Source: Candidatus Eiseniibacteriota bacterium
Lineage (GTDB): Bacteria > Eisenbacteria > RBG-16-71-46
Reading direction: 5' to 3'
DNA: 64,000 nt
Assembly (NCBI GenBank): GCA_038231135.1
Contig: JBBRLX010000023.1
Location: forward strand, 1-64,000
In this document: piece by piece, positions 22,003-35,482 of the stretch
Layout: every line of letters starts with the position of its first letter
How positions within the stretch are numbered: the first letter of the stretch is position 1
Notes under the pieces: generated by a model
Database searches by the model: none
Told to the model about the DNA's origin: nothing
What the model saw: only the letters and a program-made list of their open reading frames with translations
Translations under genes and position numbers: made by a program

Positions 22003-22911
22003 CTATCGAATCCTGACCACCGGCTGACTCATGCCTCCCGACGGCCCGATCGCCAGCACGCGATACGAGCCCGGTGGCACGCGCACCCCGTGGTCGTTGC
22101 GGCCGTCCCAGATCCACCGCCGCGAGCCTGGCGCCGGCGGCAGCAGAACGCGGCGCATGGAGCGGCCGCCGGCATCGATGACTTCGAGACGCACGGGTAT
22201 CACCGCGGCCGTGGCCACGATGAACGTCACGGTAGTTCGCGACGGGTTGGGAAACGCGGGTGAGAGCTGTACCGGGCGAGTGATACCGCGCGGCGCGTCT
22301 GGCACACCGGCGACACCGTTCGTGAGCAGGATGTGATCGACGCCGAAGTCGCCCTGCAGCGGATCCGGGCTCTGGATGTACGGCGCCTTGTCGTGGCGGA
22401 TCAAGATACGGTCGGCCGTCTGGAGCGCCTGGGCAAACGTGCCCGCGCCGATGATGCGAGTGAACAGCGCGGGGCTGGTGAGATCCACAACGAATTCTCC
22501 CCACGTGCCGTTCGGCGGCGCGAAGCCGGCGGTGTATTGCCATAGGTTCCCCGAGTTGCCGATGCTGACGTGGATCTCGAGCGCCGCGTCCGCATGGGGG
22601 TTGGTGAGCCACAGGCGGATCTGCGTGATTCCCGAGGTCGTCCAGTCGCCGGCATATGCGGCGGACGTGGAGTTCGCGCCGAGCGCGCCAGGAGCATCGC
22701 GGGCGATGAGCAGATAGCCGTCGCTGGCTCCGCCGAAGCCGCCGGTTCCCGGGTTCGACAGGGTCGCCCCGCCACCCCAGGTGCCGATGCCTGAAACCCC
22801 CGGGAAATCCTCACGGAACCCGAGCGTGGGTATGGCGGTGCTCGGCGTGTTGAGGACCACGAGCAGGCCCGCGGCAGCGAGCAACACGCCGCAAATGCGG
22901 TTCGATTTCAA
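22003..22911 (-). CDS. Secreted protein with FlgD-Ig/T9SS-like C-terminal domain
   Basis: Signal peptide; beta-rich domain; FPNP...VIDAGGRSMR...WDGRNDHGVRVPPGSY. Confidence 0.8.
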   Translation of the reverse strand: MKSNRICGVLLAAAGLLVVLNTPSTAIPTLGFREDFPGVSGIGTWGGGATLSNPGTGGFGGASDGYLLIARDAPGALGANSTSAAYAGDWTTSGITQIRLWLTNPHADAALEIHVSIGNSGNLWQYTAGFAPPNGTWGEFVVDLTSPALFTRIIGAGTFAQALQTADRILIRHDKAPYIQSPDPLQGDFGVDHILLTNGVAGVPDAPRGITRPVQLSPAFPNPSRTTVTFIVATAAVIPVRLEVIDAGGRSMRRVLLPPAPGSRRWIWDGRNDHGVRVPPGSYRVLAIGPSGGMSQPVVRIR

Positions 22912-23201: not shown

Positions 23202-23217
23202 TGGCGCGCCCGTTGCG
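23202..23217 (+). promoter_or_regulatory. Sigma-54 (-24/-12) promoter
   Basis: TGGCGCGCCCGTTGCG = TGGC-N7-TTGC, about 65 bp upstream of 23283. Confidence 0.7.
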
Positions 23218-23282: not shown

Positions 23283-26108
23283 TTGAATCCACGCAATCGG
23301 GTCGCCGTCGTCCAATATGTCGCCGTGCTCGCTGCATGGCTCCTGACCTTCGCCGCGCATCCGAACGCGGCGTTCGGTCAGAACATCAACGGCGTCTGGG
23401 AGCCGATCCAGACACCGCTCAATCGGTATGGCGCGACGATCGTCGTCGATCCCGTGCAGCACCGGATGGTGATGTTCGGCGGCTTCGAGCATGCCCGGCT
23501 GAACGACGTTTGGACCATGCCGCTCACCGGCGCCCCGGGGTGGACGCGCCTGTTTGCGACCGGCGACATCGCCGAGCGCTTCGCGCACAGCGCGTTCTAC
23601 GACGCGCCGCGCCAGCGGATGATCGTGTTCGGCGGCGACGACAACGACTCGTGGAACTCGGTGTATGCGCTGTCGCTCGCCGGCACCCCCGCGTGGACTC
23701 AGATCACGCCCGCGGGCGACGCGCCGCACGTGCGCGCGGAACAGACCGCGATTTATGATTCGCTCAACGATCGCATGGTGATGTTCGGCGGCTTCGATGA
23801 CACCACCACCTACTACAACGACGTCTGGGCGCTGTCGCTTGCGGGCACTCCGACCTGGACGAACCTCACCCCGGCGGGTGCGGGGCCGTCGCCGCGGTTC
23901 CGTGGCACGGCGGTCTACGACGCGGTCAGCCAGCGCATGATCGTGTTCGGCGGCCAGCGCGCGGATTCGATATTCGGCGATACGTGGGCGCTGAGTCTCA
24001 CGGGCCCCCCGACGTGGTCCCAGGTCGTCACGCCCGGCGTCGCGCCGGCGCCACGCTACCGGCACACCGCCATCGTCGACCCGATCCGCAATCAGATGGT
24101 CGTGTTTGGCGGCTCCAACGATCCGGTGGACGGCGACAACTCGATCTTCGACGATGCCTGGACGTTGTCGCTGGGGAACACGCCGGCGTGGAGCCAGCTC
24201 ACGCCCACGGGTTCAGCCATCACGGCGCGCTATCGCCACGCGGCGCTCTACGACCCATTCGGCGATCGCATGCTGGTGTTTGCCGGTTCCGACCCCAATC
24301 TCCAGAACGACGTGAAGGCGCTGCGCCTGGGCAACACCCCCGAGTGGTCCGAGGTGATCGGCAACAACGCCCCGATCGATTCGGACAACGCGCCGGGGGT
24401 GTACTACGACTCCGCCCGCGATCGCATGCTGATCTACATCGGGACCACGGATTTCGTGGGCGCGCTCACGCCGGGCGATCCTCCACAGTGGTCAGCGCTC
24501 GCCGTCGTGGGTGCGCCGCCTGGCACCGCTGCCATTCGACCCACCGCGATCGTGGACGCACGGCGTGACCGGCTGCTGGTGTTCGGTGGCGTGACTCACC
24601 ACGAAGTCTGGCAATTGACGCTGTCGGACCCGCCCACCTGGACCCAGTTGTCGCCCGTGGGGACGCCGCCGTCGTCGCGGCTGTGGTCGACTCCGATCTA
24701 CGATCCGGTCCGCGATCGGATGCTGATCTATGGTGGCGTCGATCTCAATCCCTACCAGGACTTCAACGGCGAGGTGTGGGCGCTGTCGCTATCGGGGGCA
24801 CTGCAGTGGGAGCAGTTGCCCACCCAGGGCACGCCGCCCGAGGTGGCCGATCTCTCGACCGCCATCTACGACCCGATTCGGGACCGCATGGTGGTGTACG
24901 GGGGCCGCGATCCGGCGACCAATCCACACAACGAGACGTGGGTGCTGCCGCTTTCGGGCGATCCCGCGTGGTCTCAACTCGTCGTCGTCGATTCGCTGCC
25001 GCCGGCGACTTACGATCACGCGATGGTGTACGACCCCATTCGCGACCGGCTCGTGACGTTCGGCGGGTACACCGGCAGCCATGACGTGTGGGCTCTCGCG
25101 CTGTCCGAGCCTCCCGCCTGGACGAAGCTGTCGCCAGTGGGAGATTTCACCGGCGCCCGGCTGGGGCCATCGGCGATCTACGATCCGATGCGGGACCGCA
25201 TGGAGATATTCGGCGGCAACGACGGATCGCTCACCGAGCCCGCATGGACGCTGACCTGGGGCAGCCCCATCAAACCGGTCCTGGCGCCTGTGGGTGCGGT
25301 GGCGTGGACCGACCTGCCGTTCGCGACCGCGCGGTACCTCGTTACGAATCCGCTCGGCGGCGCCCGGTCCTTCGAGTGGACGCTGGCGAGCCAGCGCGAC
25401 TGGCCGGGATTCCCGCTGCATGGGCAGATCATTGTGGGCGCGTCGTCGTCGGAGACACTCACCGTCTCCGTGCCGGTGCCGGATTCGGCGACCGCGGGGC
25501 ATAACGCGATCTCGCTGCGGCTGTCGTTGGCGGGCGCTGCTGGCAACGACGTGTCGAATACCCGCGACATGGCGCATACCACCACGGCGACGCTGGCGTC
25601 GCTGGTCACGGCAGAGGCGCAGCCCGGGCGCGCATATGTGACGTGGCGGGTGAGCACGGCTGGTGAAGTGCGGATCGAACGTAGCGCGGCGTCCGGCGTA
25701 TGGCAGGAAATGGCGATGTCGCTGCCCGACGGGCTTGGCAATGTGAGCTACGACGATGCGGCGGTGGTTGCGGGCGAGCGCTATGGCTACAGGGTCGCGT
25801 GGGGCGTAGTCGTGGCGGGCGAGGTGTGGCTCGATATTCCGAATGCGTTCGAGTTGGCGCTGCGTGGCGTGAGCCCGAATCCCTCGACGGGCGCGATGAC
25901 GGTGAGCTTCTCGCTACCCGTGCAGGGCCGCGCGAGCGTGGATCTGTGCGACGTGCTCGGGCGGATCGTGGAGCATCGCGCGGAGGAGTTTGCGGCGGGG
26001 GTGCACGTGGTGGCGCTGGCGCCGCAGGCGATTGCGCCGGGGGTTTACTGGGTGCGGATGGGGTTTGAGGGACGGCGGATGCAGAAGCGGGTGGTGGTCG
26101 TGAGGTAA
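23283..26108 (+). CDS. Secreted Kelch-repeat protein (12 repeats) with T9SS/FlgD-like C-terminal domain
   Basis: Signal peptide; twelve xYDxxxxRMxxFGG...VWxLxL...W repeats; SPNP...DVLGR...PGVYWVR tail; GGAGG SD, TTG start. Confidence 0.9.
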   Translation: MNPRNRVAVVQYVAVLAAWLLTFAAHPNAAFGQNINGVWEPIQTPLNRYGATIVVDPVQHRMVMFGGFEHARLNDVWTMPLTGAPGWTRLFATGDIAERFAHSAFYDAPRQRMIVFGGDDNDSWNSVYALSLAGTPAWTQITPAGDAPHVRAEQTAIYDSLNDRMVMFGGFDDTTTYYNDVWALSLAGTPTWTNLTPAGAGPSPRFRGTAVYDAVSQRMIVFGGQRADSIFGDTWALSLTGPPTWSQVVTPGVAPAPRYRHTAIVDPIRNQMVVFGGSNDPVDGDNSIFDDAWTLSLGNTPAWSQLTPTGSAITARYRHAALYDPFGDRMLVFAGSDPNLQNDVKALRLGNTPEWSEVIGNNAPIDSDNAPGVYYDSARDRMLIYIGTTDFVGALTPGDPPQWSALAVVGAPPGTAAIRPTAIVDARRDRLLVFGGVTHHEVWQLTLSDPPTWTQLSPVGTPPSSRLWSTPIYDPVRDRMLIYGGVDLNPYQDFNGEVWALSLSGALQWEQLPTQGTPPEVADLSTAIYDPIRDRMVVYGGRDPATNPHNETWVLPLSGDPAWSQLVVVDSLPPATYDHAMVYDPIRDRLVTFGGYTGSHDVWALALSEPPAWTKLSPVGDFTGARLGPSAIYDPMRDRMEIFGGNDGSLTEPAWTLTWGSPIKPVLAPVGAVAWTDLPFATARYLVTNPLGGARSFEWTLASQRDWPGFPLHGQIIVGASSSETLTVSVPVPDSATAGHNAISLRLSLAGAAGNDVSNTRDMAHTTTATLASLVTAEAQPGRAYVTWRVSTAGEVRIERSAASGVWQEMAMSLPDGLGNVSYDDAAVVAGERYGYRVAWGVVVAGEVWLDIPNAFELALRGVSPNPSTGAMTVSFSLPVQGRASVDLCDVLGRIVEHRAEEFAAGVHVVALAPQAIAPGVYWVRMGFEGRRMQKRVVVVR

Positions 26109-26191: not shown

Positions 26192-28642
26192 TCAGAGGAT
26201 GCGGTACCGGCGGATCTTATTGATGAGCGTGGTCCGCGGAATCCCGAGGGCCTTGGCCGCCTCTGTGCGCGAGCCGCGGGCGTGTTTCAGCGCTTCGGCG
26301 ATGCGCGCTCGTTCGTTGACCTCGAGTTCTTCAAGCAACGTCGTCGGACCCACGGATGGCGTGAGGCCTAGGTCGGATGTCGTCACGACGTGGTCGGCGG
26401 CTCCCAGGATCACGACACGCTTGAGGACCGATCGCAGCTCTCGAATATTGCCGGGCCAGGAGTGTTCGCGCAGGGCGGTCATCGCTTGAACGCTAAGGGC
26501 AACGCGCTTGCCGTATTCGAGGTTCGCTTCGGCGAGGAAGTGGTGGGCCAGCAGTTCGACGTCCGCTCCGCGGTGCCGCAACGGCGGCAGCGTGACGACT
26601 GCATGGGCGAGGCGATAGTAGAGGTCGTGGCGGAAGTGCTCGCCGGTTTCGAGCGCCACCCGGCTACGATTGGTAGCCGCGACGACCCGCGTATCGACGC
26701 GAACGTTCTTCGTGGCCCCCACGCGCCGCAGTTCGCCCGTCTCCAGGAACCTCAGCAGGCGTGACTGGAGATCGATCGGCATTTCGCCCAACTCGTCCAG
26801 GAACACCGTGCCGCCATCGCATACTTCGAGCAGGCCGGCCTTGTCGCGGTGCGCTCCCGTGAACGAACCCACCGAATGGCCGAATAATTCGCTCTCGATC
26901 ACTTCGCGCGGCAATGAACTGCAATTGATTGGGAGGTAGTTGCCGGTGCGCCCGGACAATTTGTGCACTCCCAGGGCAATCAGTTCCTTGCCGGTCCCTG
27001 ATTCACCCAGAATCAACAGTGGTGACCGGCTCTTCGCGAGCTTGTCGACATCGTCCAGCATATGCAGCAGCGGCAGGTTGGCCGTCACGAGTCCGAATGT
27101 GTCGAACGCCCATTTCGTACGCCGCTCCAGTTCCGATGCACCGCGTGGGCGGCGAAGCGGGACGGAAGACTCGCGCACTGCAATGGGATGCACAACGGCC
27201 GGCGGACGCACCTCGCCCGCTAGGTCGGCCAGACGGAGTTTCGCTTCCGTGAGCTTGGCCTGCGCGCCCATGCGATCGAAGTGATCAACGGCGGCGCCGT
27301 AGGCCTCTTTCGCGTGGGCCAGGCTCGTATGATCCGCCGCATGCGGTCCCCGCAGCCAATCACCGTACGCCATCCACAACTTGCCCCACTCGTAGGGGGT
27401 CTCGATGTCGTCGAAGTAGGCAAAGCCCTGATCGAACCATTGCTTCGCTTCGGTCACCTTGCCCAGTGCCGCAGCGCTGAGCGCGAGCGATCGGTAGGTT
27501 GCCGCTTCTTCGTAGCGATCACCCAATTCCCGACAGTGGTCGAGCCCGATGCGAGCCTCGTCGTAGGCTTCGTCGAAGCGACCCAGAAGGTAGTAACACT
27601 CGGCGCGCCTGCGACGGAGCTCGGCAACGATGTCACCCTTCGGAACGAGCGCCAACGCCTTCGGAAAGACCTCGTCGTATAGCGCAAGAGCCTCGGAAGC
27701 TTGACCCTGTTCGAGATGGACGTCGCCGAGGAACTCGGTGGCGAGGAGGGCGGGACGAGAAGTGCCTTTGGTAACTCCCGCGAAATCTCTTGTCAGGCTG
27801 TCTGTTGCCGCTTGGGACAACCCACCGTGCAGCAAGAGAATGCCCTTCAGTAGCGATCCATACCATGCCTGCGAACCTCTTCCAATTACCAGCTGCTGAT
27901 CGCAATAGTCTGTGGCCTTGCGAAGATCTCCGCGCTTCCAGTGAACTATTGACGCATTACGAAGAGAACTACAGAGTAAAGGGGCAAATTCATTCCGTCG
28001 GCAAATCTCAGCGGCTGCAATTGAAGTTTCCAGAGAAGAAAGCCAGTGTGCTTTGCTTCGCTCGATCCAAGAAAGTGCTAGGAGAGAAGATGCCTCTTGA
28101 TAGGCATCGCAGCACCTACGCGCAGAAACCACGGCTTCCATTGCGCATGGCTTGGCTGTAGCCAAATCGCCGAAGAAGATGAATGTCCACGCTAGTCGCG
28201 TAACGCAGTAGGCCAGCGTGGGAGAGTCTGGACGGCTGAGGAGAGAATTCCGAATGCCAGTCAATATCGCAATAGCTTCGTCATGCCGTTGAAGCTGAGA
28301 GAGATTTGTAGCGTGTAGTATCGAAAGTTGCATCTCGACGTCCGTGCCATGATCGGAAGGAGGTCCAGGCAATGACGTTAAATCAAGCGATTCCTGTAGC
28401 CTGCCGGAAACATTGAGGGCTCTGGCTTTGGCGAATCGAAGCCTTAGAGCAAGAGAATGAGGTACGTCCACGGAGTCGCTCGGCAACGATGCCAATGTAA
28501 TCGCAAGGTCCGTCTCTCCAGCATTGATAAGATCCAAGCAGCAATTGACCACGGATTCCACGATGTCGGATTGGAATTCCCGTTGGGTCCCTAACGTGCA
28601 TACTGCGCGGATGGCTTGGGCGCGGGAGAGTAGATCGTTCAT
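26192..28642 (-). CDS. TPR-type helical-repeat sigma-54-dependent transcriptional activator
   Basis: About 470 aa of TPR-like helices, then GESGTGKE, ESELFGH..GSFTGA, FLDELGEM, WPGNIREL, Fis-type HTH. Confidence 0.92.
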   Translation of the reverse strand: MNDLLSRAQAIRAVCTLGTQREFQSDIVESVVNCCLDLINAGETDLAITLASLPSDSVDVPHSLALRLRFAKARALNVSGRLQESLDLTSLPGPPSDHGTDVEMQLSILHATNLSQLQRHDEAIAILTGIRNSLLSRPDSPTLAYCVTRLAWTFIFFGDLATAKPCAMEAVVSARRCCDAYQEASSLLALSWIERSKAHWLSSLETSIAAAEICRRNEFAPLLCSSLRNASIVHWKRGDLRKATDYCDQQLVIGRGSQAWYGSLLKGILLLHGGLSQAATDSLTRDFAGVTKGTSRPALLATEFLGDVHLEQGQASEALALYDEVFPKALALVPKGDIVAELRRRRAECYYLLGRFDEAYDEARIGLDHCRELGDRYEEAATYRSLALSAAALGKVTEAKQWFDQGFAYFDDIETPYEWGKLWMAYGDWLRGPHAADHTSLAHAKEAYGAAVDHFDRMGAQAKLTEAKLRLADLAGEVRPPAVVHPIAVRESSVPLRRPRGASELERRTKWAFDTFGLVTANLPLLHMLDDVDKLAKSRSPLLILGESGTGKELIALGVHKLSGRTGNYLPINCSSLPREVIESELFGHSVGSFTGAHRDKAGLLEVCDGGTVFLDELGEMPIDLQSRLLRFLETGELRRVGATKNVRVDTRVVAATNRSRVALETGEHFRHDLYYRLAHAVVTLPPLRHRGADVELLAHHFLAEANLEYGKRVALSVQAMTALREHSWPGNIRELRSVLKRVVILGAADHVVTTSDLGLTPSVGPTTLLEELEVNERARIAEALKHARGSRTEAAKALGIPRTTLINKIRRYRIL

Positions 28643-28926
28643 TTCGCTCTAACTCCCACATGCGCCAGGTGATTGCCAAATCGGGTTAGGTCAATCAAGA
28701 CCACTTGACCGGTCCAAAGCCGAATTGGAAGTATGTAGTTTGCGAAAAACCCGAAGCGTTGCGGGGTCCCTCCAGGATCTCCATCCGGATCCCCAAACTG
28801 CGGCGTATGCGGGTCAAACCACTTCGTCGGCCCGAGCCCACCCGCCCCACTCCATCGCGGCGTGAACATGACTCCCACCAGGATCACGACAGCCAGCCAC
28901 GAGTACGGCCGGCGCAGCGTGTTCAT
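28639..28926 (-). CDS. Small secreted pre-peptide (95 aa, GDPDGDP motif), candidate signalling peptide
   Basis: GAAGGAG SD; signal peptide MNTLRRPYSWLAVVILVGVMFTPRWSGA; TGA overlaps ATG of the activator. Confidence 0.72.
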   Translation of the reverse strand: MNTLRRPYSWLAVVILVGVMFTPRWSGAGGLGPTKWFDPHTPQFGDPDGDPGGTPQRFGFFANYILPIRLWTGQVVLIDLTRFGNHLAHVGVRAK

Positions 28927-29241
28927 CTCGGCGCTCCTTCGGAGATCCTTCTCCGCGAGACAGCAGCTCGGATTCGGGGGCGAGCCACCAAGAAACAAGT
29001 GAGCCCCGCGAGGGCGCGCGTACGCGGACCTATCGCGGGGCAGCGAGCAATGTTCCGAACGGAGGGGTAGGGGACCACAAAGCTCCCGGAACTGTGGTGA
29101 AACGTCAACGGAACGTCAGGCTACAGTATGGCTTGGACTTAGCGCGTTCAACTGATTTCTTCCGGTGACGGTAGATTAATCCGCCGCGCTCATTCGGAAT
29201 GATCAGAAATCCGATCGGCGAAAACTTTCGACCGATTTCCC

Positions 29242-29257
29242 CGGCATACCCATTGCA
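29242..29257 (+). promoter_or_regulatory. Sigma-54 (-24/-12) promoter
   Basis: CGGCATACCCATTGCA = GG-N10-GC with TTGCA; divergent from the peptide/activator operon. Confidence 0.7.
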
Positions 29258-29563
29258 GTTGACCGCGGCGACCTGTTCACGTCCACCTCATGCCCGCCCG
29301 GTACCCATCATGCCCCGCAACACCTTGAAGCACTTCCCCACGGCGATGATTCGCCGCGGGTTGGCCCAGTTTCATCCGGGCAGCCGTGTGCCCGTCCAAT
29401 CTCCGATCGATCCCTCCGGCAACGATCCGCGACAACTCCATCATCCCTTGCCGGATGCAACGCCGTCCGTGGATCCTGCATGGCCGCTTCCGACGGACGC
29501 ACCGTCCAGCACTCGCCGACCTGATCCCGGGACCGTAGCCACAGCGCCGCCCGCGCTCGTCGG

Positions 29564-31093
29564 ATGAGCGAGGCCCCCGGCAACGACTCCACCACCCACC
29601 AGGTCGCACGCGGCACGGTGAACCTCCTGTGCGGCATGGCGGGGGGCAAGGCGCTCGACTTCGGGCTCTACGTCATCCTCGCCCGCGGGCTCCAGGTCGA
29701 GCAGTACGGCCGCCATATGTACGCGCTGTCGTTCACGCTGCTGTTCAGCATCGTCGCAGACCTGGGCGTGGGCACGGTGTTCGCCCGCGATTCCTCGCAG
29801 GACCCCGAATCCTCCCGTGCGCTGCTGCGCACCACGCTGGGGCTCAAGGTGCTGCTGGCGATCGCCACCGGGGTCGCCGCGGTGGGTGTGGCGTTCGCGA
29901 CCGGCGCCTCGCCCGCCACCATCGCGCTCGTCGCGCTGTTCACGCTGGGCATGCTCATCAATCAGGTGGCCGGGCTATTCGAGACGCTGCTCCGCAACGA
30001 GAACCGCGCCGGCGTGGCCGGGCTCAGCATGGTGGCGCAGAGCCTGATCGCGCTCACGCTGGGCGGGTTCCTGCTGGCGCTCGGCGCCGGCGTGTTCTCG
30101 GGCGCCCTGGCCTACCTGTGCGGCGCGGTCGTCCACCTGCTCACCGCGGCCAACTGGTCGCGCCAGCACTGGCGCTACGAGCACGCCGACACGGCACCCG
30201 AGCGCTTCCCCATGCCGCGGTTCCCGAGCCTGACCGCGTCCACCACGCTCATTCGCAACGCGGCGCCGCTCGCGCTGACGGGCGTGTTCCTCACGCTGTT
30301 CTTCCGCGCCGACACGGTCATTCTCAACGCGGTCCGCGGGCCCGAGGCGGTCGGGCTCTATGGCAGCGTGTTCCGGTTCTTCGAAGCGCTGGTGCTGGTG
30401 TCGGTCGCGTATCGCTCGGTGCTGTTCCCGTTCATGGCGCGGCAGGCCGACCGGCCGGTCGAGGCGCTGCGCGTGCTGTGCCGCAAGTCGTTCCGCGTGC
30501 ACCTGATCTTCACGGTGGGCGTGGCGGTGATCGTGTCGAGCCAGGCGCAGGTCATCGTGAATCTGGTGCTGGGCGCGCGCTACGCGTCGGCGGCGCCGGT
30601 GCTCGCGATCCTCGTGTGGGCGCTGCCGGCGGTGTTCATGACCGATACGCTGCTCCACCTGCTGCTCGCCCAGCATCGTCAGGCGGCCAGCGCCCGGTCG
30701 ATCGCGCTGGCGGCGGCAGCGAACGTGGCGCTCAACCTGGTGCTGATCCCGCGCTGGGGCATCGCCGGCGCCGGCATGGCGCTGGTGGGCAGCCAGGTGC
30801 TGTGCTTTGGACTGATGTTCTCCGAGTTCCGCCGCACGGTGCCGGGCGTGGGGCTGGCCTATGCCATCCGCGCGCCGCTGCTCGCCGGGGGCACGGCGGC
30901 GCTCGCCATGTCGGCGCTGGGGCCGGTGTCGCCCGACGGCATGACGGGCATGGTGATCAGCGGCTGCATCGGCGGCGTCGTGTACCTGGCGGCGCTCGCG
31001 TTGCTGGGGGCGCTCGGCCGGGAGGACGCCGAACTGATGCAGGATCTGCTGCCGTCCGCCCTGCGGCCCGAACGCCAGCAGGAACCCGCGTAA
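29564..31093 (+). CDS. Polysaccharide flippase (Wzx/PST family)
   Basis: ILARGLQVEQYG, ADLGVG, RADTVIL...EAVGLYG, NVALNLVLIPRWGIAGA; many TM helices. Confidence 0.9.
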   Translation: MSEAPGNDSTTHQVARGTVNLLCGMAGGKALDFGLYVILARGLQVEQYGRHMYALSFTLLFSIVADLGVGTVFARDSSQDPESSRALLRTTLGLKVLLAIATGVAAVGVAFATGASPATIALVALFTLGMLINQVAGLFETLLRNENRAGVAGLSMVAQSLIALTLGGFLLALGAGVFSGALAYLCGAVVHLLTAANWSRQHWRYEHADTAPERFPMPRFPSLTASTTLIRNAAPLALTGVFLTLFFRADTVILNAVRGPEAVGLYGSVFRFFEALVLVSVAYRSVLFPFMARQADRPVEALRVLCRKSFRVHLIFTVGVAVIVSSQAQVIVNLVLGARYASAAPVLAILVWALPAVFMTDTLLHLLLAQHRQAASARSIALAAAANVALNLVLIPRWGIAGAGMALVGSQVLCFGLMFSEFRRTVPGVGLAYAIRAPLLAGGTAALAMSALGPVSPDGMTGMVISGCIGGVVYLAALALLGALGREDAELMQDLLPSALRPERQQEPA

Positions 31094-31204
31094 GCCTCGT
31101 TCCCGCCGCAAACTCCCGCTCAAGCCGGGGGGGTGGGTGGCCGATTCATCCCCGGTACGAGCACGCTCTCGACCCGCGGCATTGGCAACTCGCAGAGGAT
31201 TTCC

Positions 31205-34200
31205 ATGGCGGACTCCCGGAAGGCCAAGTCTCAGCCCAAGTCCAAAGGTACCAAGAGCTTTGCTTCGGCGCCCATTGGGCTGCGGGAGCTGCTGGACGCG
31301 TCGCCGGATGCCATCTTCTGCTGCGACGTGGACGGCCACTGGAACTGGATCAGCCCCGCGTTCGAGGCGCTGACGGGCCTCAAGCCGAACGACCTGCTCG
31401 GCAACTACTGCACCGAGGTGGTCGCCCCTCAGGACCGCACCCGATTCCTGCGCGCGGTCCTCGCGATGCGTCACGACAAGGCGACGGAGCCGTTCGAAGG
31501 CGTCGTCACGCTGATGCACGCCGAAGGCTCGGCGGTGCGGGTGGCGGCGCGGGTGCGGCTCATCGAGCGTGCCGACGGTGATCCGGCATTCGTGGGAGTG
31601 GTGCGCGAAGCGCATGGCGCGTCTGGTTCGTCACCGGGCCTAGTCCGTCCGGCATACGACATGGGCCTCCCCTCCGCGCCTGGCGCGGGAGGGATGGGAA
31701 TGGCAGGCGCGCCAGTCGCATCGGGCACCGACACGTATACTGACGACGGCATGCTCGAGGGGATCGAGCGGCACATCGACGCTGGTCACGCCAGCGAGAT
31801 CCGCGACCAGGTCGAAACCAACTCGAACGAACGACTGGCCGAGCTGGAAGCCCAGGTGGCTGCGCTCACGAGCGAGTTGGAGCAGGCGCGCGAGGCCGCG
31901 CCCAACGGCACCGCCACGATGGCTACGGGCGCCGCGGATACGGCCGGGACCGATGCGCTGCGCCAGGAACTGGCGACACTGCGCGCCGATCTCGACCACG
32001 CGAACGACGCCGCCACGAGCGCCGTCACCCGAGCGCTCGAGGCGCAGACGAAATTGGAGCTGGCCGCGAACGCGACCGCGAATGCCGAAGCACGGGCTCG
32101 CGAGGCCGCCGCCGAGGTGGAACGGCTGCGTACCGCCGCGGAGACTCCGGTGTTGCCGGCGCTCGCCGCCGGCGCCACGGCGCCCGAGATCGAGCAGGCG
32201 CATCGCGAGCTCGAAGACAACCGCGCGGAGCTGCAGCGCACCTACGACACGACCAAGATCGAGATCGCCAGGTTGCGCGCCGAGGCCGACGAGGCTCACG
32301 AGGACGCGCGGCGGATGCACGAGGAGGCCGATCGTGCACGCGCCGACGCGCGCGACCTGCTCGATCAGGCCGAGAAGGCGCGTATCCAGGAGGGCAAGTC
32401 GCGTGCGGAAGCCGTGCGGGCCCGCGACTCGGCGGTCAAGGCGCGCACCGCGGCCGAACTGCGCACCGAGACCAGCCTCAAGAACGAAGCCGCGGCCACG
32501 GCGCGGGTCGCCGAGCTCAACAAGCGCGTCGACACGCTGACCACGCAGCTCGCGGCGCTGAAGGGCGCGTCCAAGGACACGACGAACCACGACAAGCTGC
32601 AGGGCCGTAACCGGGAGCTCGAAGACCGCGTGAAGGCGCTGGAAGACGAGCTGACCGAGACGCGAACCGAGACGGTGGCGCTCGCGAAGCACAGCGATGA
32701 ACTCGAGCAGCAGCTTCAGACCCAGGTCCCCGAGGCGGAGAGCCTGCACGACGAGCTGATCGCGACGCGCGCCGAGATCGTGCGCATGCGCGAGCGCACG
32801 TCGACCGGCAACGGCGAACTGCAGCGCGTGCAGGGCGAGCTCGAGACGGCGCTCACCCAGCTCGCGGCCATCGAAGCCGAGGTCACGCGGCTGCACGATG
32901 CGACGGGCGCGGTAGCGGAGGCGCAGAGCGTCGTCACCGGTGATGACGAGGGCAGCCAGCATGTGGCGGAGCTGCTACAGCGCGTGGCGTCGCTCGAGAA
33001 GCTGCTCGAGACGTCGCAGGCGCGCGGCGCCGAGTGGAGCGAGTTCATCTCCACGCTGAGCCACGAGATCCGCACTCCGATGAACGGCGTGATCGGCATG
33101 GCGCACCTGCTGCTCGACACCGCACTCGACGCCCAGCAGCGCAGCTGGGTCGAGATCGTGCGGCATTCGGCGCACGCGCTGCTCGCGCTCATCAACAACT
33201 CGCTCGATTTCTCGCGGCTCGAAACCGGCAAGCTCGAGATGGAGTCGGTCGACTTCGACTTGCGCGTCACGATCAACGAAGTGCAGGCCGTCGTGGGCCC
33301 GCTGGCCCGCGAGAAGGGCCTGACGCTCATCTGCCAGGTGCACCACGAGGTGCCGTCGCGGCTGTTCGGCGACGCGGGACGGCTGCGCCAGATCATCCTC
33401 AACGTGCTCGGCAGTGCGATGCGGTGCACCGACGGTGGCGAGGTGAAGCTTGTCGTGGAGCGCGTGGACGAGGGCGAGGAGAGCGTTCAGCTCCGGTTCC
33501 GCGTGATCGGCTCCGGGGTCGGCGCGTCGGAAGAGCACATGCTCAACCTGTTCCAGGCGTTCGTGAAGTCCGATGCCGCGATCGCGCGCCGGTTCGGCGC
33601 CGATGGCCTGGGGCTCGCGGTCGCCCGCCAGCTCGTCACCCGCATGCGCGGCACCGTGGGCATGGAGAACGACGCCTCGGGCACCACGCCGTGGTTCAGC
33701 ATGAAGATCATGAAGCAGCCCGAGGTCACGGCGACCTCCGAGGCGCCGACCGTGCGGCTGCGCGGCCTGCGCGTGCTGGTCGTCGACAACTCGCGCGCGG
33801 TGCGCAACTCGCTGGTCGAGATGCTCGCCGCCTGGGGCAGCCGCGCCGACGAGGCGGGCAACAGCGAAGAGGCGTTCGACCGGCTGAAGCGCGCGCTCGA
33901 CGAGAACGATCCCTACAAGGTCGCGATCATCGACATGGAGCTGCCGGGCGTGAATGGCGAACAGGTCGGCGGCCGCATCCGCTCGATGACGGAATACCAG
34001 TCGACGCGCATGGTGCTGCTCACCAGCGTGGGGCGCCGCGGCGACGCGGCGCGGGTGCGCAACCTGGGATTCTCGGCCTACCTGATCAAGCCGATCCAGT
34101 GGTCGGAGCTGTACGACGCGCTGACCGAGGTGGTGCAGCAGGGCCATCCGGCGGTCGACACAACGCCGCTCGTCACCCGCCATTCGATCGCCGAGTCGCG

Positions 34201-35482
34201 CCGCACGCGCGTGCGCATCCTGTGCGTGGACGACGATCCGGTGAACCAGCTCGTCTCGGACTGGACGCTGCGCCGCCACGGCTACACGCCGGAGCGCGCG
34301 GGCACCGCGGGTAAGGCGCTCGAGATGTTCGATCACTCGCCGCCCGACGTCATCCTGCTCGACGTGGCGCTGCCCGACATGGACGGTTACCGCGTGGCAC
34401 AGTCGATTCGCGCGCGCGAGCAGCAGAGCGGCCGCCACACGCCGATCATCGCCGTCACCGGCAAGATGATGCCCGGCGACCGCGAGCGCTGTCTCGCCGC
34501 GGGCATGGACGACTACCTGACGAAGCCGGTCGACCTGGGCGAGTTGTGTGCCCGCGTCGAGCGCTGGACCGGCAAGATGCGCAACCAGTCGCAGGCGGAG
34601 CCGGGGCCGCTCGTGGGCGGGTCCACGGCCCCGATCGAGCGCGACGACGCCACCGAGTCGCGGTCCGACATCCAGGCCGGGCTGGGGGCGATCATCATGC
34701 CGCCGCCCGCGCCCAGCCATGTGCCCGCGCCCACCGGACTCCGCGTGGTGCCGACGCTGGCGCCGGCGGTGACGAGCAGCGAAGCCGACGACACGCCGCT
34801 CACGCTCGCGAACGAGGACGAATTCGCGGTGCCCAATCACCCGAGAACTCCGCCGCGGCTGTCGCTGGTCCCGCCCGAGGCTGCGGCGAAGGTCGAGCGT
34901 CGCCGCCACGACGATCCCACGGGTCTCGGCGACGAGATCGACTTCGAGTCCGACTCCGACGACATCCCCGGCGCCGCGGCGCCTCCGACGTCGTTGAGGG
35001 TGGACGAACACGAACAGGCAGACGAACAGGAACACGCAGACGATACCGACCAGGAACCCGTCGAAAGCGACGGCTTCTTCCTCGAAAAGGCCCCCGACCG
35101 TGGTGCCAGCACCGGGTTCACCAGCGACCCGTCGATCCTCGACATGAAGCGGCTGGACGACGCCAGCATGGGTATTCCCGCGCTGCGCGAGGCGCTGATC
35201 ACCACGTTCATCGGCGACCTCAAAGCGCGGCTCGATCGCATGGACATCGCGATCCTCAACCGCTCGTCGCAGACGCTCGAGCACGAGGCGCACGGCCTGA
35301 AGGGCATGGCCGGGACGATCGGCGCGGTGGGCTGCTCCGGCGTGTTCGAGCAGATCGAGCGGCTGTCGAACGAGGAGCGCTTCGAGGGCCTCGAAGAGTT
35401 GATGGAGAAGGCCCGCCAGGAAGCCCGCAAGGTCGAGGATCATATCCTGACCCTGGGATTCCGCCCCCGCCGCGCTGCCTGA
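31205..35482 (+). CDS. Soluble hybrid histidine kinase-like protein (PAS, long coiled coil, HisKA, degenerate HATPase, 2 REC, Hpt)
   Basis: LLDASPDAIF PAS; SHEIRTPMNG; REC motifs IIDMELP and LLDVALP; AHGLKG Hpt. Confidence 0.9.
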   Translation: MADSRKAKSQPKSKGTKSFASAPIGLRELLDASPDAIFCCDVDGHWNWISPAFEALTGLKPNDLLGNYCTEVVAPQDRTRFLRAVLAMRHDKATEPFEGVVTLMHAEGSAVRVAARVRLIERADGDPAFVGVVREAHGASGSSPGLVRPAYDMGLPSAPGAGGMGMAGAPVASGTDTYTDDGMLEGIERHIDAGHASEIRDQVETNSNERLAELEAQVAALTSELEQAREAAPNGTATMATGAADTAGTDALRQELATLRADLDHANDAATSAVTRALEAQTKLELAANATANAEARAREAAAEVERLRTAAETPVLPALAAGATAPEIEQAHRELEDNRAELQRTYDTTKIEIARLRAEADEAHEDARRMHEEADRARADARDLLDQAEKARIQEGKSRAEAVRARDSAVKARTAAELRTETSLKNEAAATARVAELNKRVDTLTTQLAALKGASKDTTNHDKLQGRNRELEDRVKALEDELTETRTETVALAKHSDELEQQLQTQVPEAESLHDELIATRAEIVRMRERTSTGNGELQRVQGELETALTQLAAIEAEVTRLHDATGAVAEAQSVVTGDDEGSQHVAELLQRVASLEKLLETSQARGAEWSEFISTLSHEIRTPMNGVIGMAHLLLDTALDAQQRSWVEIVRHSAHALLALINNSLDFSRLETGKLEMESVDFDLRVTINEVQAVVGPLAREKGLTLICQVHHEVPSRLFGDAGRLRQIILNVLGSAMRCTDGGEVKLVVERVDEGEESVQLRFRVIGSGVGASEEHMLNLFQAFVKSDAAIARRFGADGLGLAVARQLVTRMRGTVGMENDASGTTPWFSMKIMKQPEVTATSEAPTVRLRGLRVLVVDNSRAVRNSLVEMLAAWGSRADEAGNSEEAFDRLKRALDENDPYKVAIIDMELPGVNGEQVGGRIRSMTEYQSTRMVLLTSVGRRGDAARVRNLGFSAYLIKPIQWSELYDALTEVVQQGHPAVDTTPLVTRHSIAESRRTRVRILCVDDDPVNQLVSDWTLRRHGYTPERAGTAGKALEMFDHSPPDVILLDVALPDMDGYRVAQSIRAREQQSGRHTPIIAVTGKMMPGDRERCLAAGMDDYLTKPVDLGELCARVERWTGKMRNQSQAEPGPLVGGSTAPIERDDATESRSDIQAGLGAIIMPPPAPSHVPAPTGLRVVPTLAPAVTSSEADDTPLTLANEDEFAVPNHPRTPPRLSLVPPEAAAKVERRRHDDPTGLGDEIDFESDSDDIPGAAAPPTSLRVDEHEQADEQEHADDTDQEPVESDGFFLEKAPDRGASTGFTSDPSILDMKRLDDASMGIPALREALITTFIGDLKARLDRMDIAILNRSSQTLEHEAHGLKGMAGTIGAVGCSGVFEQIERLSNEERFEGLEELMEKARQEARKVEDHILTLGFRPRRAA

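Follow-up and report, generated by a model that had tools for sequence, protein, structure and literature searches.

A conserved gene pair of a small protein with a predicted export signal and a TPR-type sigma-54 activator in Candidatus Eisenbacteria

The DNA analysed here, referred to as the window, is a stretch of 64,000 nucleotides (nt) from Candidatus Eiseniibacteriota bacterium (assembly GCA_038231135.1, contig JBBRLX010000023.1, positions 1 to 64,000 of the forward strand). On its reverse strand it encodes a small protein of 95 amino acids (aa) with a predicted export signal and, directly behind it, an 816-aa activator of sigma-54-dependent transcription with an N-terminal region of tetratricopeptide repeats (TPR). 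Together the two genes form a module that is real and undescribed. The small protein is likely the cognate input of the TPR/sigma-54 activator encoded directly behind it. The best reading of how the pair works, held tentatively and at less than even confidence, is that the TPR domain of the activator senses the exported small protein in the manner of the RRNPP systems. The features that define the module are as follows.

28639..28926, reverse strand: small open reading frame (ORF), 95 aa plus stop; ATG at 28926, TGA at 28641-28639
28939-28934, reverse strand: Shine-Dalgarno sequence AAGGAG, 7 nt ahead of the small-ORF ATG
28840..28926, reverse strand: predicted signal peptide, residues ~1-29 (LRR, LAVVILVGVM, WSGA then GG), from hydropathy and by eye
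28783..28794, reverse strand: G-D-P-D motif, residues 45-48, with a Pro-rich stretch and then G-D-P-G-G
28639..28642, reverse strand: ATGA overlap, the small-ORF stop lying on the activator start
26192..28642, reverse strand: sigma-54 enhancer-binding protein with N-terminal TPR region, 816 aa (Pfam)
27203..28642, reverse strand: predicted TPR superhelix, ~aa 1-480, 25 helices (AlphaFold2)
26600..27070, reverse strand: sigma-54 interaction AAA+ domain, aa 525-681 (PF00158 Sigma54_activat, 5.3e-54)
26204..26323, reverse strand: Fis-type HTH_8 DNA-binding domain, aa 774-813 (PF02954, 1.8e-11)

Conservation of the gene pair

A first-pass annotation of the window had described a 95-aa ORF with a Shine-Dalgarno sequence, a Gly/Pro/Asp-rich core and a TGA overlapping the ATG of an 816-aa gene. 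All of these are borne out: AAGGAG stands 7 nt before the ATG, the core reads FGDPDGDPGG, and the overlap is the ATGA at 28642-28639. From its N-terminus the small protein comprises an export-signal-like region, an acidic Pro/Gly-rich segment with the GDPD motif, and a basic, fast-evolving C-terminal half. Residues 10-19 (LAVVILVGVM) constitute a hydrophobic core with a mean Kyte-Doolittle value of 3.2, preceded by a basic n-region (LRR). Signal peptide calls throughout this work come from hydropathy and charge heuristics of our own, with the cleavage site placed by eye; of the Sec-type signal peptide proposed earlier, the hydrophobic core after LRR is accordingly a heuristic call, and export is predicted only. 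The G+C content at the three codon positions of the small ORF (0.62/0.50/0.64) matches that of the activator gene (0.66/0.47/0.66).

A six-frame search with the TPR region (aa 1-500) in 206 genomes of the window's phylum gives a match at E <= 1e-10 in 176 of them, and in 87 of the 88 genomes of the window's family. The related loci belong nearly all to Candidatus Eisenbacteria, and the few that bear other names are placed in the same phylum by the genome collection. The 30 best loci, that of the window included, were taken as the orthologous set, and 25 of them contain a complete upstream ORF of 86-110 aa on the same strand with an export-signal-like N-terminus. The motif G[DE]PD is exact in 23 of these 25 small ORFs, the remaining two having GDPN and GDPS. 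At one further locus (L049) the small ORF is cut by the contig end with its motif visible, and two loci (L034 and L038) have no upstream DNA. Counted from the nearest in-frame start of the activator, the stop/start overlap measures 4 nt at 14 of the 25 loci and 8 nt at four, and the other seven lie within 20 nt. Upstream neighbours differ among 22 orthologous loci and include S-adenosylmethionine synthetase, NFACT, hybrid histidine kinase, M16 peptidase and beta-helix proteins; because the neighbouring genes vary among loci, only the pair itself is conserved.

The pairing extends to paralogous activators. Two further TPR activators with upstream DNA are present in the window's genome, one of 811 aa (TPR / sigma-54 / helix-turn-helix (HTH)) and one of 1035 aa (TPR / GAF / sigma-54 / HTH; Pfam), and they are preceded by signal-peptide ORFs with GMGDPDVPDG or SGEPDSGDAG. 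A fourth TPR activator is located at a contig end, its upstream region falling outside the contig. A crude genome-wide scan for G[DE]PD picks out 8 of 1407 signal-peptide-like small ORFs. Three of these stand directly upstream of the TPR activators with upstream DNA (3/3), an association beyond what chance would give, and the other five are, by position, not adjacent. From many families of the phylum, 40 loci of the two other classes were fetched, of which L080 was mis-targeted and L081 (genome G073) was not counted. An upstream signal-peptide small ORF was found in 37 of the resulting 38, and at L058 the upstream ORF is split over two frames. The motif is exact in 20/27 and 9/11 of the analysed small proteins of these classes, with variants such as GDPT, GSPD and GTPD that come mainly from one family of the phylum, and the two genes are mostly separated by intergenic gaps of 6-123 nt rather than overlapping. 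By hhalign, the small proteins of the window's class and of the 811-aa class match over the signal peptide and the motif (95.7%, E 9e-9), and because the small proteins of the two classes are homologous, the pair was duplicated as a unit, long ago. Each genome thus carries about three such pairs.

Unusual forms of the motif occur in two sets of loci. In four loci of the 1035-aa class from one family (L057, L059, L060 and L063), it is present twice in tandem, as GDPDQYAN...GDPDQYA or GDPDAFAN...GDPDAF; this arrangement resembles the pheromone propeptides in tandem repeat that have been reported from some RRNPP systems (PMC11343458). In seven loci of a family designated f18 (L073, L074, L077-L079, L082 and L083), the motif is replaced by GSPDETL(S/N)PPP, GTPDETLSPPP or GDPT(A/G)DD.PSP, so that the invariant core shrinks to G-x-P-[DT] in that lineage.

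An upstream signal-peptide ORF with a GDPD-like motif, the feature by which the first-pass annotation proposed to recognise the system in activator homologs, is therefore present at 25 of 30 orthologous and 37 of 38 paralogous loci. Its suggestion of an undescribed peptide-signalling family stands in one part, namely that a conserved and undescribed small-ORF/TPR-sigma-54 gene-pair module exists; the other part, gating of the activator by a processed peptide through the TPR region as a form of quorum or kin sensing, is something we infer. A motif shared by every paralogous class is not what one would expect of a pheromone core that determines specificity.

The small-protein family and its activator

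The small protein of the window has no family match in Pfam or NCBIfam and no usable match in the ESM Atlas, where its 811-aa-class counterpart retrieves solely unnamed "hypothetical protein" clusters of Eiseniibacteriota. A profile built from the 25 orthologues and run against 1.84 billion representative proteins detects 364 clusters (50% identity) at E <= 1e-3, 32 of which are found at <= 1e-10, and no name or family is attached to these clusters. Among the best 150 profile matches, 141 contain G[DE]PD, 148 a hydrophobic N-terminal core, and 140 are 85-115 aa long; because these matches are alike in motif, core and length, independent gene callers can be said to predict the same small protein. 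The family is undescribed and lacks a family model. Fused or longer forms were sought as well and none was found, which is weak evidence, the long hits P0129, P0137 and P0231 being upstream extensions or out-of-frame read-through.

The motif is exact in 52 of the 63 small proteins of the three classes, and a hydrophobic N-terminal core with a mean Kyte-Doolittle value of at least 2.05 is found in all 63. In alignment A1, neither G45 nor P47 varies, and D48 reaches at least 90% conservation; the consensus around the motif consists of a Pro-rich run (positions -8 to -3) followed by G-[DE]-P-D-x-P-x-G-G. Close pairs are 40-66% identical in the N-terminal half and 25-44% identical in the C-terminal half, and since synonymous sites are saturated, identities only are given and no dN/dS claim is made. 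An RR pair occurs in the n-region of approximately half of the window's class (by eye) and of 56 of the best 150 profile matches, and TatC is present in the genome; Tat export of the small protein is not favoured.

The first-pass annotation had also assigned the small protein a hydrophobic tail and considered a membrane-tethered form. In the window's protein, the best 19-residue window of the C-terminal half reaches a hydropathy of 1.28 against a transmembrane grade of 1.6, and the end is basic, which speaks against a tail that acts as a membrane anchor. A transmembrane-grade segment after the motif occurs in 8/25 small proteins of the window's class and in 0/27 and 2/11 of the other two, few enough that the tethered variant is not supported; type-I membrane anchoring was rejected on the same counts, as no such segment is consistently present. 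An amphipathic C-terminal helix was likewise rejected, the hydrophobic moment not exceeding that of shuffled sequence (mean z -0.3, 0.2 and 1.4).

The charge of the small protein is divided at the motif. In the two largest classes the stretch between signal peptide and motif is acidic, with net charges averaging -2.2 and -3.3, and what follows the motif is basic (+4.9 and +4.7). Small proteins of the 811-aa class share a conserved C-terminus, W.WR...L.FYLRF, and an AlphaFold2 model of one of them (mean pLDDT 60) contains two helices only, the signal peptide and residues 93-111, with the motif-bearing middle at low confidence and probably disordered. Such asymmetry and such a conserved C-terminus with a predicted helix would suit a secreted product that is merely co-expressed with the activator, for instance a cationic peptide freed from an acidic pro-piece to act as an extracellular or periplasmic effector, with the TPR region sensing something else; contact between the small protein and the TPR domain is, after all, presumed. 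This explanation is nevertheless considered unlikely, as the pairing has been kept in three anciently diverged classes and throughout the phylum with no other conserved neighbour, which points to a tie tighter than co-regulation. Moreover, no conserved sigma-54 promoter lies ahead of the operon, and the hydrophobic moment of the C-terminal parts does not rise above the level of shuffled sequence.

The activator is a member of the bacterial enhancer-binding protein (bEBP) family with an unusual TPR input. TPR_12 (3.1e-16) and TPR_MalT match within its N-terminal 410 residues, AAA_lid_14 matches as well (4.5e-20), and REC, GAF and PAS are absent from its 16 Pfam matches, in agreement with the first-pass description of TPR, AAA+ sigma-54 and HTH regions lacking these input domains. 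Both Walker A (GESGTGKE, 546-553) and the GSFTGA loop (592-597) are complete, and an alignment of 57 relatives (A2) shows them conserved. The sequence features expected of a bEBP are therefore at hand, namely PF00158 with Walker A and a GAFTGA-type loop, a C-terminal HTH, and sigma-54 itself in the genome, where rpoN is identified by Sigma54_DBD (214 bits at C1:247898). None of the NCBIfam equivalogs reaches its cut-off for the activator, the best being PrdR (283 bits versus 795). No signal peptide or membrane segment is visible by eye at the N-terminus, consistent with a cytoplasmic TPR receptor. The public gene call (P0001) is only 547 aa long and starts at an internal codon; because the orthologues measure 820-835 aa, the frame of 816 aa, which includes the whole TPR region, is taken as the real gene, and the deposited annotation probably truncates it.

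The input domains usually reported for activators of sigma-54 are REC, GAF, PAS or V4R, and some activators have none. Certain bEBPs are under the control of a partner protein acting in trans, as in PspF/PspA, HrpS/HrpV and NifA/NifL. The activator of the module resembles them in PF00158, in the GSFTGA variant of the GAFTGA loop, in the AAA lid and in HTH_8, and control by a separate partner is a known theme among them. It differs in that a 480-aa TPR superhelix takes the place of REC, GAF, PAS, V4R or no input, and in that its presumed partner carries an export signal.

The TPR region is modelled by AlphaFold2 with a pLDDT of 92.8 and a pTM of 0.90. In a Foldseek search of the PDB, its top matches are LGN/Pins TPR-peptide complexes (E ~4e-8), and RapJ-CSF (4gyo, E 1.9e-7) appears at rank 22 among subunits of APC and other generic TPR proteins; these predicted structural likenesses fit peptide binding and do not discriminate it. 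A complex prediction with aa 1-500 of the TPR region (A2) and aa 30-95 of the small protein (A1) scored 0.02 against a mark of 0.32, which gives no verdict, and it is used neither for nor against an interaction.

Conservation within the TPR region peaks at aa 340-460 (alignment A2), next to the AAA+ domain, and a motif that is invariant in all classes would fit binding to such a conserved surface. Binding of this kind could also serve a different end, in which the small protein is an anti-activator released by export: the unexported pre-protein would bind the TPR domain in the cytoplasm and keep the activator in one state, and Sec export would free the activator, so that the system reports export capacity or envelope state. 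FlgM with sigma-28 follows the same logic, as do TPR chaperones such as IpgC, which are liberated once the cell has secreted their partners. Overlapping or abutting genes (18 of 25 overlap by 4 or 8 nt) would provide stoichiometric, co-localised synthesis, and the export signal is near-universal (63/63 analysed proteins and 148/150 profile matches). Yet a single housekeeping export route would scarcely call for three or four paralogous pairs in each genome, the two other classes have gaps of 6-123 nt instead of overlaps, Sec export is constitutive, and the binding is only presumed, so that an anti-activator role is given roughly one chance in five.

Possible sensing of the small protein and its relation to known systems

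The reading favoured here, RRNPP-like sensing of the exported small protein, would proceed in several steps. The small protein would be exported by Sec and then cut in the periplasm, and a protease-resistant fragment would return to the cytoplasm, candidates being the Pro-rich GDPD core together with the variable sequence around it and the class-specific C-terminal part. Lodged in the groove of the TPR domain, the fragment would switch how the AAA+ domain oligomerises and hydrolyses ATP, and with that the sigma-54-dependent transcription of targets away from the module. This sensing model is preferred because it best explains the near-universal export signal together with the several divergent pairs per genome. 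Several divergent pairs in one genome, with one half of the small protein evolving fast, match the pattern of multi-paralogue families of peptides and receptors such as Rap-Phr. Support comes from the pairing itself (25/30 and 37/38 loci, and 3/3 in the window's own genome), in which only the pair is conserved; from the homology of the small proteins of two classes and the size of the family; from the predicted layout of the small protein, with a signal helix, a disordered middle bearing the motif and a C-terminal helix; from the match of the TPR model to TPR domains solved with extended peptides (LGN/Pins and RapJ-CSF); and from the presence in the genome of rpoN and of five genes for Opp/Dpp-type peptide-binding proteins (SBP_bac_5).

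Several observations weigh against RRNPP-like sensing. Export, processing, uptake and binding are steps that we infer. Since the motif is identical in all three classes, it cannot by itself provide pair specificity, and a site for processing or transport common to the classes would account for it no less well than the core of a ligand. Because the host is diderm, a peptide acting between cells would have to make two passages through the outer membrane. The small gene precedes the receptor gene and mostly overlaps it, whereas in the RRNPP systems considered here the peptide gene lies downstream. Two orthologous loci, L025 and L039, have an intact activator preceded by just a 41-48-aa ORF devoid of the motif. 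The GAF domain of the third class means that the TPR region need not be the only input. Finally, no positionally conserved sigma-54 promoter was detected near the module in 50 related loci (36 hits in 495 kb).

The description of RRNPP systems comes from Bacillota (PMC10075063). The module shares with the RRNPP(A) systems (Rap/Phr, NprR/NprX, PlcR/PapR, PrgX and AimR/AimP) a small ORF with an export signal that adjoins a cytoplasmic TPR-type receptor, the adjacent propeptide being present at 25/30 and 37/38 loci with its export predicted by heuristic. It also shares the occurrence of several divergent pairs per genome and a TPR structural similarity that includes RapJ with its peptide (4gyo). 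It departs from them in its host, since Eisenbacteria are diderm bacteria of the FCB group and belong neither to the Firmicutes nor to their mobile elements, and in its output, which is a sigma-54 AAA+ domain with a C-terminal Fis-type HTH_8 rather than an N-terminal HTH or a Rap-type domain. Further differences are the length of the receptor (816 aa), the position of the small gene ahead of it and mostly overlapping it, a motif that does not vary between paralogues, and Pfam matches of the TPR region that are confined to generic TPR families. As output domain and taxon do not fit and the TPR matches are generic, the module is not an RRNPP member; at best, the pair works like one.

Within the portions of the literature that the search covered, neither a TPR/sigma-54 activator paired with a small secreted ORF nor the module in Eisenbacteria was found.

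Leader, surroundings and biological meaning

Ahead of the small ORF, the window contains a structured leader with the following features.

28927..29072, reverse strand: conserved structured leader, ~145 nt before the small-ORF ATG (alignment A4)
~29052-29072, reverse strand: leader sequence block, conserved in A4
29003-29041, reverse strand: long, GC-rich hairpin P1; five outer pairs, four with compensatory changes
28990-29002, reverse strand: T-rich tract after P1
28966-28986, reverse strand: hairpin P2, by eye
28940-28955, reverse strand: hairpin P3 (CGGAG..CTCCG), by eye, abutting the Shine-Dalgarno sequence at 28934-28939

A terminator scan gives a match at 29015-29003. At 22 of the 25 loci of the window's class, versus 4/25 on the control strand, a stable hairpin precedes a T-rich tract, and in 18 of those 22 it lies 72-79 nt before the ATG. 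The other classes have the combination at 14/27 loci, in scattered positions (control 5/27), and at 2/11 (control 2/11); a leader with a terminator-like hairpin is class-specific to the window's class. The element is single-copy in the genome, and positions 28600-29600 have no match in Rfam. It may be an insulating terminator, an attenuator or a translational switch. A leader ATG/GTG acting as a coding upstream ORF was rejected: from lineage to lineage it stands in a different frame with respect to the conserved block, and what is kept is the block itself, as DNA, with the hairpin (by eye). Autoregulation through a sigma-54 promoter in the leader was rejected for want of a conserved site.

A leader of this kind, with its terminator-like hairpin at 22/25 loci and a hairpin beside the Shine-Dalgarno sequence, could mean that the small ORF acts in cis, controlling translation of the activator by coupling, perhaps cued by export of the nascent chain, with the leader adding transcriptional or translational control. 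ATGA or 8-nt overlaps at 18/25 loci would serve such coupling, and the two loci without the motif (L025 and L039) retain a short ORF that ends on the activator start. SecM, MifM and VemP provide a loose precedent, being small ORFs with an export signal that lie directly upstream of, and are coupled to, a regulated gene, with structured RNA around the start. The likeness ends there: known arrest peptides have end-placed motifs, whereas G[DE]PD stands ~45 codons before the stop, no conserved motif is present at the C-terminal end, and conservation is lowest in the C-terminal half. The downstream gene encodes a transcription activator instead of an export component, true gaps rather than overlaps separate the genes in two of the three classes, and the invariant motif, the 364 clusters and the conserved C-terminus of the 811-aa class all point to a functional polypeptide. 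A mainly cis-acting role is therefore regarded as improbable, with about half the credence given to the co-expressed product or to the anti-activator.

Around the module, the G+C content dips to 0.55 (27500-29000) relative to flanks of 0.67-0.72, a dip that spans the TPR-coding half of the activator gene, the small ORF and the leader. Convergent with the activator gene lies 23283-26108 (forward strand), which encodes a secreted 941-aa Kelch beta-propeller protein with Por_Secre_tail, the sorting domain of the type IX secretion system (T9SS), and beyond it 22003-22911 (reverse strand) encodes a secreted 302-aa protein with a FlgD_ig-like C-terminal domain. Sites resembling sigma-54 promoters, with two mismatches each, occur on the forward strand at 23202-23217, 80 nt upstream of the Kelch/T9SS-tail gene (23283-26108), and at 29242-29257, within a 637-nt intergenic region and facing a Wzx-type flippase gene (29564-31093); related loci do not keep them in position. 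Downstream of the flippase gene, 31133-35482 (forward strand) encodes a 1449-aa hybrid histidine kinase with PAS, a long coiled coil, HisKA, HATPase, two REC domains and Hpt; at L100 and L102, similar hybrid kinases are encoded divergently upstream of the module.

The flippase gene, which in the window is divergently upstream of the module, raises one more explanation, in which the small protein is the substrate of a sorting system and the activator regulates that sorting system or an exopolysaccharide system. In the window's class a motif, a hydrophobic stretch and a basic tail superficially recall the three-part signals of PEP-CTERM and LPXTG proteins, and the known PEP-CTERM system employs a sigma-54 regulator and a TPR protein (PMC1569441). 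The module is like PEP-CTERM/exosortase PrsK-PrsR-PrsT also in having small proteins that combine a signal peptide with a short motif, acidic and containing Pro. In the PEP-CTERM system, the TPR repeats belong to a lipoprotein separate from the regulator, which itself contains a REC domain. This explanation is largely refuted and is given almost no weight: in the window's genome the exosortase model PF09721 reaches 24.7 bits, below its cut-off of 25.7, and TIGR02915 (PrsR) reaches 276.4 bits against 502.6, over the AAA+ and HTH part only. Furthermore, the motif is located mid-protein with almost no cargo before it rather than at the C-terminus, no membrane helix consistently follows it (8/25, 0/27 and 2/11), and the flippase neighbour is not conserved at other loci.

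Signalling by genetically encoded peptides that are read by TPR receptors in the cytoplasm is considered a speciality of the Firmicutes. If RRNPP-like sensing holds, Eisenbacteria may, as a speculation to which we give somewhat less credence than to the sensing itself, represent the first family of peptide pheromones and cytoplasmic TPR receptors outside that group, with three or four orthogonal pairs per genome wired to sigma-54, G-D/E-P-D as a shared handle for processing or uptake, and the fast-evolving flanks as determinants of pherotype. Whichever mechanism holds, a phylum-wide, duplicated module in an uncultured phylum of soil and groundwater would bring a new type of input to sigma-54 regulation. 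Although no member of the phylum has been cultured, the 95-aa protein and the 480-aa TPR domain would constitute a concrete pair of small parts for heterologous testing, and a family definition for the small protein (at least 364 clusters) would already improve the annotation of Eisenbacteria genomes.

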